Positions 1 to 12,000 of a stretch of 64,000 nt of DNA are shown here, piece by piece. The position numbers were made by a program. This stretch comes from a virus. Where the stretch lies: the IMG/VR virus record IMGVR_UViG_3300007735_000786, positions 1 through 64,000 of that record. One strand, given 5' to 3'. Each line of letters begins with the position of its first letter. Position 1 is the stretch's first letter.

Positions 1-3000
1 AGAAGAACGACAGTACGGTATCTACAAGTAAACTAATCGTCCTGAGCATGACGTTAAACTGCTCACATCCCAACGCAACTCAACTCATGCAATTCCAACT
101 CCCATCAAACCTCCAACAACATCTCGTTAAGTACGACCCAGAACTTAAGAAGATCATCCCACCTAGTAAACCTAAGGTGTCACGCAACACTCTTGGGTTA
201 CCTGATGACATAATCCCTGCTCACATTATCAAGAAAGAAGTTCTATCACAGATACTTATTAACATCAACGCTGAACCAGTAGAAGAAAGATACTACATAT
301 TCAGAAAGGATACTACTGGGACCAAAGCTGTGATTTACCATGTAGAAAACTTGTGGGTAGCAGCTTGGCTGCCTAACCCTGGAGAAGATTATGTTTACGG
401 AATATCATTTGCTTGTAAAGCTAGTGCTTTTAACAAGATCAATATACCATTTGGATATAAAGGTGAGCGTCTATTCAATATAGATACTGTCACACCTAAG
501 AAGTATGGACGTACTGATTTCTATACCTGGACGGACTACATAACAATAGATCACATTAAGAATGGATTAACTAATCCGTACTGGCTACATAATACAACTT
601 CATACAAGCAGAAGTTACAAGAGATCAAGCGGAACTTAACTTCGTTTACTACACAGCTCAAACAGTCTATTCCTCATTGGAAAGATACTAGTGCACATTA
701 CATATTCGAGAGACTTCATCCAGTAAAGAATAGTTATACTCATATCTTACGTATACCACAAGAGTATCCCTCAGTGCCAGGAGTAGAACTATATAAGATG
801 TATCTAGATGAAAACAATAGCCACGTACTTGATACACCCTGGTTCAAGCGTTACATCAATACAGAAGCACAAAAGATAATCTCTGCCTTCCATGATCCAA
901 CTACTACATCTCCTGACGTACTAGTGAAGATGCATGATGAAGTAAAGCATACGCTTGCATGGATTAACAGGATACTTAAGATCTGGCCTGACTGTCCTAT
1001 TGATTACTTACAAACAGCAATAGCTAACAATACATTTGCATTACTTACACAGCATAGTTTTTACTGGGCAGTAGATTCATTTGACGCATTAAAGACTTGG
1101 CTTAATACTTATTTACCTATAGAGTCATTCTTTAAAATCCTTACTAAATATACAGATGAATTAAAGACTAGACCTACAGGAAGAAGTACTAAACATACAT
1201 TCCACTTGTTGGTTGACACAATAACTATGCTTGATCAGATACTTACAGCAGGTGAGACTATTAATCCACCTAAACGTTGGCGCATAGAAGAATTCCATGA
1301 TCACATCCAAGTAAAAGCTTGGACAATAAAGAATCCTAATCAATGCTTACCACAGGATTTATTTCCTACTCCTATTAAAGTATTAGATAAAGATCAGACA
1401 TGGACCTTTATACAACCAATAGATACGCATCAACTGTCCCTATGGGGACAAGCTGTACGTAACTGTGTTGGTGCAGCATCATCATATGCTAATGCTGTTA
1501 AGACTAAGAAGGCATTCATTGTCTTGTGTCTATGTAACAATAGACCTCAGTTCACTGTCATGCTTAAAGTGTCCAATGGTGTCATGCACGTAGACCAGAT
1601 TGTTGGCCTATCCAATGCCAGGCTTAACGATGTTGAAAGAAATATTTATGAAGATAAGTTTAGCAGGGCGTTGCAGCTACGAGAAGAAGAACTAAGATTA
1701 GGTAACTGATCTACCGATAGGTCAGTTACTTAATCCTTATTAAGTAATCAACCTATCTTAAACAGTCAGTAGTACCAGACTACGTTTGTATCTCATGACA
1801 CAAAACTACACCGATGATCAACTACTAGCTATGGCTATGGGAAACCTTGGTACTTTTATTGAAACAAATACAAGACATTACATTCTTATAGAAGATGACC
1901 CGCGTAATGAAGAAGACTACGACACATGGTCTTATGGTACTGAACCAGTACCTGGTGATCAGACCTGGAAAATAGGTGCTATTGAAGTTGAATCAATTAC
2001 AATTGATGACACACTAATACTTGGCAGTGCTTAGCACGTAAGCCCAAGATATACGTTCACTTACTACACAACCACATGCAAATTCTTGCTGCCTTCAAAC
2101 ATCTCATTCCTGAACTACATGCTTACTCCGATGATGACAAACGTTACAACCTTGGCGCTACATGGACAGCGCCTGATGGGCTACAAGACTTCCACAATTT
2201 GGAGCTACGATACGTTCATAACTCTGAACGTCTTGCGCTCCAAGGGGATCCGCAACTTGATGGTAGCTGGCGATACATTGAACCCAATGGTTCCGTGCAT
2301 ACCATCTCAGCTGAACGTGCAGCTAAATTTATGGATGACACCAATCGCCATGCCAATATCATGTGCGATATGTTAGACAAGTTAAAAGAACATGGTTTAA
2401 GTTCTACCATGGTAACTACCAACGCTACAGCAGCGTAACTTCTTTGTACACTTCACGCCCCTGCTTTAGCGGGGGCTTTACCTATGACTGATGCCACTAG
2501 CCCTGAGTTCATTGATCTCAATCTTGTAGATCAAATTATGGAAGTTATTCCACCATTAACCTGGCCCACAGTTCTTAATGGTGTAATCAACCAGATTATT
2601 GATGCTATGCCTAGTGATGTTCTGTTAAGGCTCACTGGAGATCCAATAGGTTTTGAAGAAGCTGAAAAGCTTTTATTTGCGTACTATGCAGAACCTGAAA
2701 GGGAGAAAAAGGATCTTATCCTTGATGCCTTTAGGTGTATAGGAGAAGAACAACTTTGTTACTTCTTGGATTCATTGGATCTTGAGAAGTTAAACAAACG
2801 TTTAGAACAACGTGCAGATACTGCGCCATGTTCTGTAGAAAAAACAAAAGAGTTCAATGACTTTTGGTTTGATTAATTTTGATGGACCTAGGATGTCCTT
2901 AAACTCAACTGCATTCCATTACTACACAACACCATGCAACTCCTTAAATTCAGCACAGGCAACGGCAAACTTTCTAATCGTTTGATCTTTAATATTCCAG

Positions 3001-9000: not shown

Positions 9001-12000
9001 GTACTTTGTTAAGCAAGAGGAGCTTAACAGAATGAAAAAGTTAAGAGAGCAAGGTTTGTCCCAAGAAACGGTGGCTGGTTTGCTAGGACGTTCAAGAGTT
9101 ACAGTTCGTCATTGGGAACGTCGTTCATTCCTTTTGGATGATAAGCTTCCTGCATCAGGTCCAGTGCATCCTTCACTAGTCCCTTGATCACCACTTGTCT
9201 TGTTGTTGCAATCTTGGTAAGTAACACTGCCATCTCTCGTAACTCAGCGATAGATGAGCAGTCGTTAATTTGTCGAGTCATCTTCTCTTGCCAGAACATA
9301 TCTTCTGGCGACAGTATGAATTGCAACATTAGCCACTACTCAATTACTAATCCTCATTGTAACCTCTCGAACCATGACTACTACAGCAACACATGATGAA
9401 TTTAATTCGTCTTCTCAAGCAACACATACTGAACTTAATGCAGCACAAGCAACCATCTACACGCGCACAAATATATCGCGTGCGTTTCCAGACTTCGATG
9501 ACTCTGGCGTGGTTGGTATTTATCTGCGAGGTGACTCTTGTCTTGTTGTGTATCGCGATGGTACTGAACGTTTGTATCCAAGGGAGGCAATCAAAGCAAC
9601 CTTTACTTCCTATACGCACAGACTCAAGGACTTCTTCTCATACCTTGGACCTAATTACAGGGGACCAAGTATCTGGCACGATAACTCTTACATCTTATTC
9701 AAAGGCTGGAACTACAGTCACACACTTGGACACTTAAATGACAATGCAAAACTACAAGGCCAATGGGCAGATAAGTTCATTCGTCTTACTGATCCAACAA
9801 AACTTAAAGCGTTGCTTCAGTCAGAGCACACAGACCTTGGGCATCTGGTTGCACCGGACGGGTTGCGGCTTCCAGATCGGCTCCCTGATTTGGACTCTGA
9901 GTTGGAGACAGTGCAAGAAGAACGGCCCATGTTTGGCGAACCTCACTGCTCATGTGGGTCCTTTCAACGTCAGCTCAACAACCTACCTTTGTTCCAACAA
10001 GAGATCGAAGGATTCAAACAACATTGCATCCATCTAACTTGGATTGCTAAATACAGAAGCCTGCTATCCAAACGCACTGAGGCACGTGATGCGTGTCCTG
10101 CTGGTGTCCCACACACTTGTGTTGCTTGGTGGTACCAGCCTCCTATGGATCACGCCAGTGATGGTCGTTTCCTTTTACTGCACACTAAGTCTGGAGTGCA
10201 AGCGCCCCTTAGCCATTGGCGTACCTACAAACCTAAGGAATCATTTACTCAGCGTCATGCTTGGGATCTATTCTTTAGTATGCTTGATGCAGGCTATGTA
10301 CCATTCCCTGGTACCTCACTACCTCAACTAAGAACGGCTTTCAAACATGACTAATCCAAATGCATGGCTTACCAAACTAGCCATTAAAGTTACAGAAGAT
10401 AACGATAGTCCCTGTCTAATTCAAATTGACTGGGACGAAACTGATCCAGAGCTTGACTACTGGAGTAACCTAGACCAAGAGGGTAAAGAAACCCTTATCC
10501 ACAACCTCCTCAACCCTGACGGTATTCACCATGACCATTGATGCATACGGACTTCCATTTGAACAGTACGAAGATTTCTTTTCAAGTAATGCAACTAATC
10601 TAGTTGAACTATATATTTCAACACATAAGTATTTTGTAGACATAGTACAAGAAGCATATGGAGAAACTGCTTCCTGTGTTCTAGTGGATTCTCCTGTTTT
10701 CTTGGAATTATTTAATGGACTTATTTATGCAACAAATGATGAGTGTCATCGTTACCAAAAGAGAAACAATCCTGAAGCTATGGAAGACGTTAGGTTAAGT
10801 GGTAATTTATTTGGTGATGATGACCTTCTTAAACAAATAAAAGAAGTTAATAAAAAGTTAAATGATTTGCTTGCAGTTTTTATTGCAATACAAAAGGTAC
10901 CTACTGGTATCACAGGAGACACAGAGGAGTAAGTAGACTCCTGTTGTTCGTGTGAGGAACCGTCCTGGTGATGACGTAAAAAGCACCACCAAACCTACCT
11001 ATTCAATCTAATGTTTGAAACTATTCTTGCTTACGTTCTTCCCTTTGCCAAAGATTTACTTTGGACAGCATGCGCAGCTATGCTGGCCTTAGTACTCACC
11101 AAAATCAAATCTCAATTCATCTGAACCATGGCTCAAATTACTAGCACCAAACTCAAAGAACTTTCTGTTATCAAACTCTATGAACACTATGCTGCCCTTG
11201 AGAAGTCTCTTCCTTTACTCACTCCTGAGTCCCAAGACCTGGCAAAAGCTGAACTGGAATCTTGTATTGACTTACGCTCAGAGAAAGTTGATCGTATCTA
11301 TTATGCAATGGCCGCGCATGAAGATGCGTTGGAACGTATCAAGAAAGAAGGTGACTTAGTTGCAACAGCTAAGCTTCACCACACGTCACAACTTAAATCT
11401 CTTAAAGGTTTGTTAAGTTACTTACGTCGGGTCCTACCATTAGATACGAATAAGATTACTGGTCGCAACTATCAATTCACCCTAATTAAAAAGAAGGAGC
11501 TTACTGTTGAAATCAACTCGGACCCGGAGCTTTGGGACACTGAAGAAAAGTCAACCTATTGTATGGAAGAAGAAACAACCACAACCAAAAGAGTTGTGCT
11601 ACGTTCATTCTCAGGAGAAGTTCTATCCGATAGAACAGAACCTAAAACAACCACTAAAGTCCTCCCTAATCTCGATGTCATACGCTACGCCTATCAAAAC
11701 GGACAACAACTCCCGACCGGTGTCAAAGTTGTCCAAGACTATAGTGTCAGATCCAAACGAATCTTTAATGAGCCAAAAGTGGACTTGGTTGCATCCGAGT
11801 ATCCAAGAGAGCTTTTACCTGAAGATACCAGCGCCGACTGATGTAGATGATGCTCGCATTAAGATGAGTTGTCATGACCATGCTCTTAAAGACTTTGATC
11901 TCCAGCTGGAGATGAATGACTTACAAACGGGTATGTTAAAAGATGGAGATGAGATTATACCGTACCATGGGGATGAGCATGATGACCTGGAAGCAAAAAG

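Follow-up and report, generated by a model that had tools for sequence, protein, structure and literature searches.

A small pseudoknot ahead of cyanophage early genes resembles viral coremin RNAs and may block 5′→3′ mRNA decay

A recurrent pseudoknot in the early region of a cyanophage

The window analysed here is a stretch of 64,000 nucleotides (nt) of viral DNA, bases 1-64000 of one 72,751-bp contig (IMG/VR record IMGVR_UViG_3300007735_000786), and it contains five sense-strand H-type pseudoknots of about 25-28 nt each, hereafter called knots. The window encodes photosystem II D1, a family A DNA polymerase, a primase, a single-strand DNA-binding protein (SSB), the large terminase, portal-like and major head proteins and an integrase. 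The DNA polymerase protein is 66.8% identical to its counterpart in Synechococcus phage S-EIV1, and a megablast of window positions 1-12000 against isolate phages gave no match, which together point to an uncultured relative of that phage. With psbA, polA and terminase present, the source is an S-EIV1-like double-stranded DNA cyanophage from a lake. All knot copies are confined to its rightward early/replication block, in the first 12 kb.

Each knot begins with a first stem, P1 (CGUC/GACG in four of the five copies), whose loop contains the 5′ arm of a second stem, P2; P1 is followed by UUAAAC and then by the 3′ arm of P2. The canonical geometry is a 4-bp P1, a 1-nt loop L1, a 5-6-bp P2 (commonly lengthened by a sixth U-A pair), a 1-nt junction and a 6-nt A-rich loop L3 (UUAAAC). 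The copies, with their scores under a covariance model derived from relatives, are the following:

38..65, + strand: copy 1; P1 CGTC/GACG (38-41/50-53), L1 C42, P2 TGAGCA/TGCTCA (43-48/60-65), L2 T49, L3 TTAAAC (54-59); 45 bits, E 3e-9
2884..2910, + strand: copy 2; P1 GGAC/GTCC (2884-2887/2895-2898), P2 degenerate; 24.5 bits
6575..6603, + strand: copy 3; P1 6575-6578/6589-6592, 10-nt loop, P2 GAGTA/TGCTC (6583-6587/6599-6603) with one G-U pair; 32.5 bits
7661..7685, + strand: copy 4; P1 7661-7664/7671-7674, 6-nt loop, P2 GCTG/TAGC (7667-7670/7682-7685) with one G-U pair, L3 TTAAACG; 20.3 bits
10961..10988, + strand: copy 5; P1 10961-10964/10973-10976, P2 TGGTG/CACCA (10966-10970/10984-10988), L3 TAAAAAG; 35.7 bits

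A first reading made from the sequence alone (the sequence-only reading) had placed five copies at these coordinates, and all are present there on the + strand. The covariance model recovers exactly these five (E 3e-9 to 6e-3), the next matches in the window having E ≥ 0.13 and lying on the opposite strand, and it finds no copies in the remaining 8.7 kb of the genome. That reading had also called P2 of copy 2 weak; it is indeed degenerate in this phage, and the orthologues of copy 2 in relatives carry GGAT/ATCC or GAGCA/TGCTC. Fold alone does not single out the knot: a structure-only scan (any 4-bp P1 with a 4-5-bp P2 and WAAA) was unspecific, with 35 matches on the + strand and 30 on the − strand, and the loose core pattern GWCSTWAAA gave 10 matches against 5.8 expected. 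Specificity comes from sequence and from covariation in relatives.

Interleaved covariation identifies a sense-strand RNA

We recruited 28 IMG/VR loci by their polymerase protein (26 of them at 72-97% identity), added S-EIV1, and searched the window and these 29 related loci, 623 kb in all, on both strands with the covariance model. The search returned 143 matches, every one on the strand of the DNA polymerase gene and none antisense; S-EIV1, an isolate with a known Synechococcus host, carries seven. Among 117 distinct rows, pseudoknot pairing was kept in 86.0% of cells against 72.0% in column shuffles (0 of 500 reached the observed value), and the true figure is higher, since the alignment was anchored on the motif and register variants were scored as breaks. 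In the same rows 168 cells had changed on both sides, against 43 in shuffles. Sliding the partner by 1-3 columns lowered pairing to 22-46%, and the 66-row seed alignment gave a similar picture of covariation.

A parse of 79 distinct copies that left loop length free resolved P1 into five types, namely CGTC/GACG (56), GGAC/GTCC (14), TGTC/GACA (6), GGTC/GACC (2) and AGTC/GACT (1), all of them Watson-Crick and without a single mismatch, and P2 into more than 50 types. Isolate phages add CGAC/GTCG and TCTC/GAGA to the P1 types. An independent scan of IMG/VR used a pattern that fixes P1 and L3 and leaves three P2 pairs free. In that set 290 of the 306 free P2 cells paired, where shuffles averaged 224 and reached at most 237 in 1000 trials, and in fixed register G-U outnumbered A-C by 80 to 2. 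Two interleaved helices that covary, together with wobble pairing on one strand only, indicate a folded sense-strand RNA and not a site in duplex DNA. The knot is thus an RNA structure, as the sequence-only reading had held against a DNA operator, and the covariation and spacing that it expected in homologues are present, the latter as a distance of 31-34 nt to the next start in 82 of 123 contexts (see below).

These results bear directly on the idea of a DNA-level element, either a promoter (for example with TAAACT as −10 box) or a dimeric operator. TAAACT fits TAnnnT in three of the five copies, the early block shows no conspicuous consensus sigma-70 promoter, and the records of phages B166 and B122 label the knot site as a BPROM-predicted promoter; a promoter-consensus scan of positions 1-16000 was uninformative (32 sites against 41.9 in shuffles). 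However, the final T of the putative −10 box is lost in copies 4 and 5, the column profile holds no information upstream of the knot except a stop codon, and no phage RNA polymerase was found (75 open reading frames (ORFs) by PHROGs and 16 more by Pfam, with many ORFs left without a match). With the covarying helices, a G-U excess that fixes the folding strand and not one antisense copy in 143, a DNA-level role is next to inconceivable.

Knots are tied to the downstream start codon more tightly than to the upstream stop

The features that define the position of the knots in the window are these:

66..86, + strand: linker of copy 1; 21 nt (A7 C10 G1 U3) to ATG 87, no Shine-Dalgarno (SD) sequence
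87..1709, + strand: gene after copy 1; 540 aa, weak PcfJ-like match below the Pfam cut-off
2934..3695, + strand: gene after copy 2; GP88 family (PF17338)
3924-6569: polA, an ORF of 881 aa with its stop at 6567-6569
6627..7430, + strand: gene after copy 3; SSB (ssb)
7708..8751, + strand: gene after copy 4; DUF5895 protein
11011-11124, + strand: first gene after copy 5; 37-aa hydrophobic ORF
11128-11841, + strand: second gene after copy 5; Sipho_Gp157-like ORF, weak sub-threshold match

From the motif ends as first drawn to the ATGs at 87, 2934, 6627, 7708 and 11011 there are 22-23 nt, a spacing already reported in the sequence-only reading and confirmed at all five copies. Also as described there, the linkers between knot and ATG (21-23 nt) are poor in G, with 0-2 each, and contain no SD. 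Its claim that each copy sits at or just after the previous stop is correct for copies 2, 3 and 4, which follow a stop by 7, 5 (the polA stop) and 6 nt, but fails for the other two. Copy 5 lies 28 nt past a stop (10930-10932) that is spanned by a terminator-like hairpin (10925-10942), and for copy 1 no ORF ending upstream was found within the contig. Assuming that the contig ends join, copy 1 lies ~200 nt past the intrinsic terminator of an 82-aa gene. With no ORF ending upstream of it, copy 1 heads the early block.

We compiled placement statistics on the 123 distinct contexts of the S-EIV1-like set. The gap between the stop of a long ORF and P1 was 5 nt in 48 contexts, 6 nt in 13 and 7 nt in 6, so that a stop lies 5-7 nt upstream of the knot in only 67 of the 123; the upstream ORF was missing in 8, and gaps were long in many. 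On the downstream side, an ORF starting with ATG was found within 90 nt in 122 of the 123 contexts, and its distance from the end of P1′ was 31-34 nt in 82. In the column profile P1, the first and penultimate loop nucleotides and UUAAACU are near-invariant, and in the ~20 columns that come next G makes up 0-12%. Fusion of the flanking ORFs through frameshifting or readthrough was considered and is excluded by a slippery heptamer in just 1 of 123 contexts and by stop-to-ATG distances that are uniform modulo 3 (24/20/23).

Early-block genes of this phage have C/A-rich leaders without SD whether or not a knot leads them. Clear AAGGAG-type SDs stand before several other genes, for example at 12130 and 16543(−), with three more in the remaining piece of the genome (L030), and the phage seems to have two modes of translation initiation. 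Past a strong terminator (about L030:8555-8585), the intergenic region 5′ of copy 1 holds three to four repeats of GGTATC-N2-CAAG (L030:8640-8751 and window 1-30). GGTATC also adjoins the knot in two relatives (L002, L003), and the early block may have its operator or promoter in this repeat region.

The knot is widespread in phages and bacteria

A 23-column pattern of the knot occurs in at least 132 IMG/VR stretches and in at least 128 stretches of species-representative bacterial genomes; what follows on these two wide sets refers to the matches listed. The viral matches include single copies in phage records of 150 kb and 115 kb, in which no match to the SSB of the window was found, and the bacterial ones come from Desulfobacterales, Omnitrophota, Planctomycetes, Saccharibacteria, many Firmicutes, a phytoplasma and others. 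In an Enterococcus prophage the knot lies between the minor-capsid and scaffold genes, and one Bacilli contig carries five copies. The 5-nt gap after a stop recurs in the wide IMG/VR set (41 of 123 contexts). The distance to the next ATG is broad in both wide sets, and an SD-like tetramer follows the knot in 47 of 123 IMG/VR and 62 of 128 bacterial contexts. These features indicate that the SD-less leader of fixed length is a trait of the S-EIV1-like lineage, not of the motif. Outside this lineage the knot precedes ordinary SD-led genes, hammerhead ribozymes or terminators, and an SD-independent translation enhancer, one of the functions first proposed, is not supported as its general role.

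BLAST of copy 1 against isolate phages matched 138 records, among them 83 of Staphylococcus, 27 of Vibrio and 3 of Synechococcus, with other hosts including Nostoc, Microcystis, Mycobacterium, Arthrobacter, Paracoccus, Lactobacillus, Bacillus and Moorella. A query with a second P2 variant added phages of Corynebacterium, Streptococcus and Cellulosimicrobium. Well-covered matches belong to phages of Staphylococcus (83 records), Synechococcus, Nostoc, Microcystis, Mycobacterium, Arthrobacter, Corynebacterium, Lactobacillus, Bacillus, Moorella and Paracoccus. Three P2-variant queries found no real instance in 5,426 complete E. coli genomes; the sole marginal match (E=6), which falls inside a plasmid coding sequence and lacks the 5′ arm of P1, was discarded as chance. 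In S. aureus phage B166 (KP893289 21040-21083) the knot is built from P1 CGAC/GTCG and P2 AGCA/TGCT and lies 9 nt past the stop of a head-morphogenesis gene, on the near side of the scaffold/major-capsid genes. AAAAGGAG stands ahead of the next gene, an SD-led one that begins 60 nt downstream of the knot and is located before the major capsid gene. P1 TCTC/GAGA is combined with P2 GAGCA/TGCTC in Vibrio phage D456 g1 and in 26 records near-identical to it.

This distribution weighs on the nature of any partner. The leader of gene 32 in phages T2 and T4 carries a small H-type pseudoknot upstream of the unstructured leader of a phage SSB gene, and that pseudoknot is a single-copy autoregulatory site bound by gp32. 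The topology of our knot (1-nt L1, 6-nt L3) resembles it, one copy precedes ssb, and strongly conserved single-stranded letters (C42, A48, UUAAAC) stand beside a P2 of free sequence. All this would suit an operator for a phage RNA-binding protein in a regulon of the gene 32 or RegA kind, with SSB or another early protein nucleating on the knot and covering the leader. In contrast to the gene 32 site, the knot is multi-copy and precedes unrelated genes, ssb following one of the five copies, and it occurs where no match to this SSB was found, as in two large IMG/VR phages (G001, G003). Its core is found again in phages across many phyla and in the chromosomes of bacteria, and sequence identity across phyla cannot be explained by a lineage-specific protein partner. 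We consider a protein operator very improbable and find no support, as a general reading, for the analogy with a gene 32/SSB regulon drawn in the sequence-only reading. Another multi-copy motif set at a fixed distance upstream of phage starts, the SAS/ESAS of cluster K mycobacteriophages, is unrelated in sequence, is not known to form a pseudoknot and, unlike the knot, is known only from one phage cluster.

A different proposal assigns the knot to the preceding gene, as a processing or 3′-end signal: a cut site for RNase E, P or Y, or a cap against 3′→5′ exonucleases. Its position 5-7 nt past a stop in 67 of 123 contexts would suit such a role, as would the knots that lie directly 5′ of self-cleaving hammerheads in one Firmicutes contig. 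However, no ORF ends just upstream of copy 1, and the association with the downstream ORF (122 of 123) is tighter than that with the upstream stop. Moreover, among the matches listed, 17 of 128 bacterial contexts and 11 of 123 from IMG/VR have a terminator-like hairpin with a T-run immediately 5′ of the knot; an upstream RNA ended at such a terminator would exclude the knot. We regard this proposal as unlikely.

In the contig of Firmicutes bacterium CAG:95, four knots lie within ~4 kb, each 5-6 nt upstream of a hammerhead-like core. Two of the hammerheads (L280:86-147 and 638-699, − strand) score 48.4 and 42 bits with Rfam Hammerhead_3, whose gathering score is 48.5, and the cores at L278 and L279 were identified by eye only. 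In metagenome-assembled genomes (MAGs) of Bradymonadales (L181) and Calditrichia (L241) the knot lies within a CRISPR spacer, between direct repeats of 36 nt, and these arrays have apparently sampled motif-bearing mobile DNA.

In 50-odd anaerobes, from Desulfobacterota, Omnitrophota, Planctomycetes and some Clostridia (e.g. L212:86-169:+, L205:155-238:−, L226:155-235:−), the knot overlaps the stop codon of a conserved SD-led ORF of 20-27 aa with the consensus ...R(F/Y/W)M(I/L)(P)R(P)(V)AHC(K/S/T)xGC... The ORF ends in TAG at the first P1 pair or in TAA within UUAAAC, and a terminator or an Rrf2 regulator gene often follows. It matches no Pfam or NCBIfam family. This arrangement could serve as a leader-peptide device, one that obliges the ribosome to unwind the knot.

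The core of the knot matches coremin, an exoribonuclease-resistant RNA

The absence of a named Rfam family, stated in the sequence-only reading, was confirmed with Rfam 15. At gathering thresholds the window yielded only an abiF RNA, located elsewhere than the copies; at E ≤ 10, no family was found at the copies, on either strand, in window 1-11200; and at E ≤ 1, 20 bacterial loci gave only the neighbouring hammerheads and one sub-threshold small-RNA match. The pistol ribozyme, with its layout of hairpin, ACGUUAAA and pseudoknot, was dropped as a candidate, having no Rfam match and lacking the P2/P3 and cleavage-site parts.

The likeness that emerged is with coremin, an exoribonuclease-resistant RNA (xrRNA) found in the genomes of plant viruses and other eukaryotic RNA viruses (PMC10520033, PMC6546385, PMC10321173). 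In its minimal element, 5′-GUCCGAAGACGUUAAACUACGGGAAACCA-3′, a conserved spacer joins a first hairpin (hp1) to a second (hp2) (PMC10520033); the element has GUCC and GACGUUAAACU in common with copy 1. P1 of the knot matches the 3-4-bp stem (N)GUC/GAC(N) of hp1, the other P1 types being compensatory. The coremin loop follows the consensus YGAD (4 nt) or YGNNAD (6 nt), and loops of 4-8 nt are functional (PMC10520033). Among 96 canonical 8-nt loops of the knot, C occupies the first position in 100% and U, where the consensus has G, the second in 96%; the penultimate nucleotide is A in 100%, and the last is U in 83%, A in 8% and C in 8%. First C and penultimate A are common to both RNAs, and the last loop nucleotide is mostly not C.

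The match is closest in the spacer, where UUAAACU is shared letter for letter. In the coremin spacer, UUAAACUAC, A15-A17 and C18U19 are essential and U14A is tolerated; mutations in A15-A17, in C18U19 or in the first loop C abolish stalling of Xrn1 (PMC6546385). The corresponding letters of the knot are U (85%), U (78%, with A in 21%), AAA (100%), C (94%) and U (95%). The columns that are invariant among knots are those whose mutation kills Xrn1 stalling, and the tolerated U14A corresponds to a natural GUAAAAC variant of the knot. The two letters after the spacer differ from coremin (G/A, then C/A/U) because they are part of P2.

The two RNAs also share their setting, both being intergenic and present in tandem or multiple copies, and for coremin a pseudoknot between loop and spacer is suspected; an engineered version with Watson-Crick pairing there resists Xrn1 (PMC10321173). 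This engineered RNA, xrRNA_WCC, has hp1 and spacer of coremin together with a canonical loop-spacer pseudoknot, as the knot has, and stimulates frameshifting independently of hp2 (PMC10321173). It came from a randomised screen and two viral species, whereas the knot is natural and exists in hundreds of copies; and its second stem has ~2-3 bp and needs hp2 for Xrn1 resistance, whereas that of the knot has 5-6 bp and covaries freely. Coremin itself differs from the knot, whose loop of 6-10 nt pairs with the nucleotides that follow UUAAAC to form a Watson-Crick P2 of 5-6 bp. The carrier differs as well, the knot occurring in mRNA of DNA phages, in bacterial chromosomes and in prophages, and the nuclease is Xrn1/Xrn4 for coremin, where we propose RNase J for the knot. 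Judged by sequence and predicted pairing, the knot appears to be a prokaryotic, Watson-Crick-pseudoknotted variant of coremin (xrRNA_C) and not a plain member of that class by the coremin criteria.

The three coremin papers contain no mention of bacteria or phages, prokaryotes go unnamed in the two checked for them and RNase J in the one checked for it, and literature searches by topic and by motif letters found no description of the knot in either. A catalogue of 10,006 candidate RNAs from IMG/VR (PMC10690425), which mentions the gene 32 pseudoknot, may already contain the motif under a number; a text search of six of its supplementary files, with files 1, 2 and 4 outside the search, did not find it. 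On these comparisons, the knot would be an uncatalogued and widespread prokaryotic relative of a known viral xrRNA. Novelty restricted to phages, which the first reading implied, is gone, given the bacterial copies and a named relative in eukaryotic RNA viruses.

A roadblock to 5′→3′ decay is the favoured function

Three functions had been offered in the sequence-only reading: translation enhancer, block to RNase J decay and protein-binding regulon. Through the match to the coremin core, the outside evidence favours the second. We give roughly even odds (about 50%) to the reading in which the knot would be a mechanical 5′→3′ roadblock that protects the downstream cistron from 5′-end-dependent, RNase J-type decay. 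A flavivirus xrRNA has been found to halt bacterial RNase J1 (PMC5760640), which shows such folds to be general mechanical blocks.

We picture the mechanism as follows. Folded in the sense-strand mRNA as a compact H-type pseudoknot, the knot would come into play once the polycistronic early transcript is attacked from its 5′ side, by pyrophosphate removal or by an upstream endonucleolytic cut. RNase J would then degrade the RNA in 5′→3′ direction, perhaps with RNase E also scanning from the 5′ end, until decay halts about one nucleotide before P1 at a block that depends on direction. The product would be a stable mRNA in which the ORF is preceded by the knot and a short leader devoid of structure. 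In the S-EIV1-like lineage the G-poor leader of ~21 nt would just suffice for loading of the 30S subunit without melting the knot, and the minimum gap of 5 nt past the preceding stop would prevent terminating ribosomes from unfolding it. Both the halting of the nuclease and these reasons for the spacings are what we infer. In Gram-positive bacteria, 5′ mRNA stabilisers such as stalled ribosomes and SD-like 'STAB-SD' sequences block RNase J1. The proposed outcome is the same, a 5′-proximal obstacle to 5′→3′ decay, although theirs acts through a bound ribosome or protein and that of the knot would be protein-free.

Several observations favour this roadblock: the tie to the downstream ORF (122 of 123) is tighter than that to the upstream stop (67 of 123), copy 1 stands at the head of the block, and 28 of the 251 wide-set contexts listed have a terminator-like hairpin immediately 5′ of the knot. 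Of five motif-bearing bacterial genomes, four yielded RNase J (TIGR00649), as did the Synechococcus elongatus control. Judged from BLAST of three P2 variants and the matches listed, hosts come predominantly from groups with RNase J, and the E. coli genomes gave no real instance. Copies 2, 3 and 4 are each crossed by short assembled contigs of relatives that stem from one RNA library, a weak hint, as DNA carry-over is possible, that knots are transcribed within longer RNAs.

A number of points weigh against it. Vibrio is not known to have RNase J, yet the Vibrio phage clade (27 near-identical records) carries a good knot and is the exception that any nuclease-shield model must explain. In the fifth motif-bearing genome tested, an Omnitrophota MAG, no RNase J was found. 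In many bacteria the knot overlaps the stop of the tiny ORF and a terminator comes next, and in the Firmicutes contig it lies directly 5′ of hammerheads; in neither case is there a downstream cistron to shield. As to the likeness with coremin, loop position 2 is G there and U in the knot. Moreover, hp2 directly after the spacer is required for Xrn1 resistance of coremin (PMC10520033, PMC6546385). The phage copies have no hp2, the 3′ segment pairing back into loop 1 instead, and the window leaders (21-23 nt) contain no hairpin as judged by eye only. Finally, the sharp 5-nt mode between stop and knot is the geometry of a frameshift stimulator and suggests the ribosome as partner.

This last point introduces the main rival, since a 5-nt gap puts the knot at the mRNA entrance of a terminating ribosome. 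The knot could act on translation, either as a platform on which ribosomes load or stand by without an SD, at a fixed ~21 nt from the start codon (the lead idea of the sequence-only reading), or as a brace or insulator for the ribosome terminating 5 nt upstream, with translation between cistrons uncoupled or paused. The 5-nt peak (48 of 123 here, and 41 of 123 among the matches listed in the wide IMG/VR set), the constant 31-34 nt between P1′ and ATG in 82 of 123 contexts, the SD-less linkers of this lineage with 0-2 G and the bacterial knots that overlap the stop of a conserved 20-27-aa ORF would all suit it. Coremin, besides, blocks scanning ribosomes and drives −1 frameshifting in eukaryotic extracts (PMC10520033, PMC10321173). 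The near-absent slippery heptamer (1 of 123) and the uniform stop-to-ATG distances modulo 3 speak against such an action on the ribosome, as do the broad ATG distances and frequent SD-like tetramers outside the lineage, the B166 knot with an SD-led gene 60 nt on, and the other SD-less early genes of this phage that have no knot. We hold a role in translation to be doubtful, if the most serious competitor of the decay roadblock.

Further features of the genome

The polA ORF has 881 aa, against ~620 aa in most relatives as judged by match lengths. A weak Hint-module match covers residues 451-557, and a contig of run X3 joins polA positions 5277 and 6099, omitting 821 nt; the insert at ~5277-6099 looks like an intein or similar element that is present in some relatives and not in others. 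The terminase (59022-61685, 887 aa) shows additional endonuclease/primase-like matches in mid-protein. The abiF RNA (Rfam RF03085; window 15828-15864, − strand; 49.7 bits against a gathering threshold of 37) adjoins HNH/endonuclease VII genes. The psbA gene lies at 57833-58930 (− strand) in this 72-kb phage, which is neither T4- nor T7-like and also carries an integrase gene (28478-29332).

Discussion

So far xrRNAs have been described only in eukaryotic RNA viruses; coremin is the smallest among them and the one whose structure is least understood. Possibly, at slightly less than even odds, the knot is the first natural prokaryotic class of exoribonuclease-resistant RNA, protein-free and of ~27 nt, that would halt RNase J at defined positions and might do the same to scanning RNase E or ribosomes. 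If this is true, phages of many phyla and some bacterial genes would use it to cut polycistronic transcripts into stable units. The core, a GUC hairpin followed by UUAAACU, would then have been reached or inherited also in plant, fungal and insect RNA viruses, and would be one of very few functional RNA motifs common to bacteriophages and eukaryotic RNA viruses.

The idea is testable with purified RNase J and with cultured pairs such as S-EIV1 and Synechococcus, or with Staphylococcus or Nostoc phages; the 83 matching Staphylococcus phage records make an experimentally tractable system. Hundreds of natural knots with a clear Watson-Crick pseudoknot would give the coremin field covariation data that are missing there, in support of the loop-spacer pseudoknot suspected there, and would provide a portable 27-nt stabiliser for synthetic biology in cyanobacteria and Gram-positive bacteria. 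For the phages themselves, the knots raise the question whether bacteria and their viruses govern mRNA decay by protein-free roadblocks to RNase J, and they would explain how stability is set cistron by cistron in phages with long SD-less early operons.

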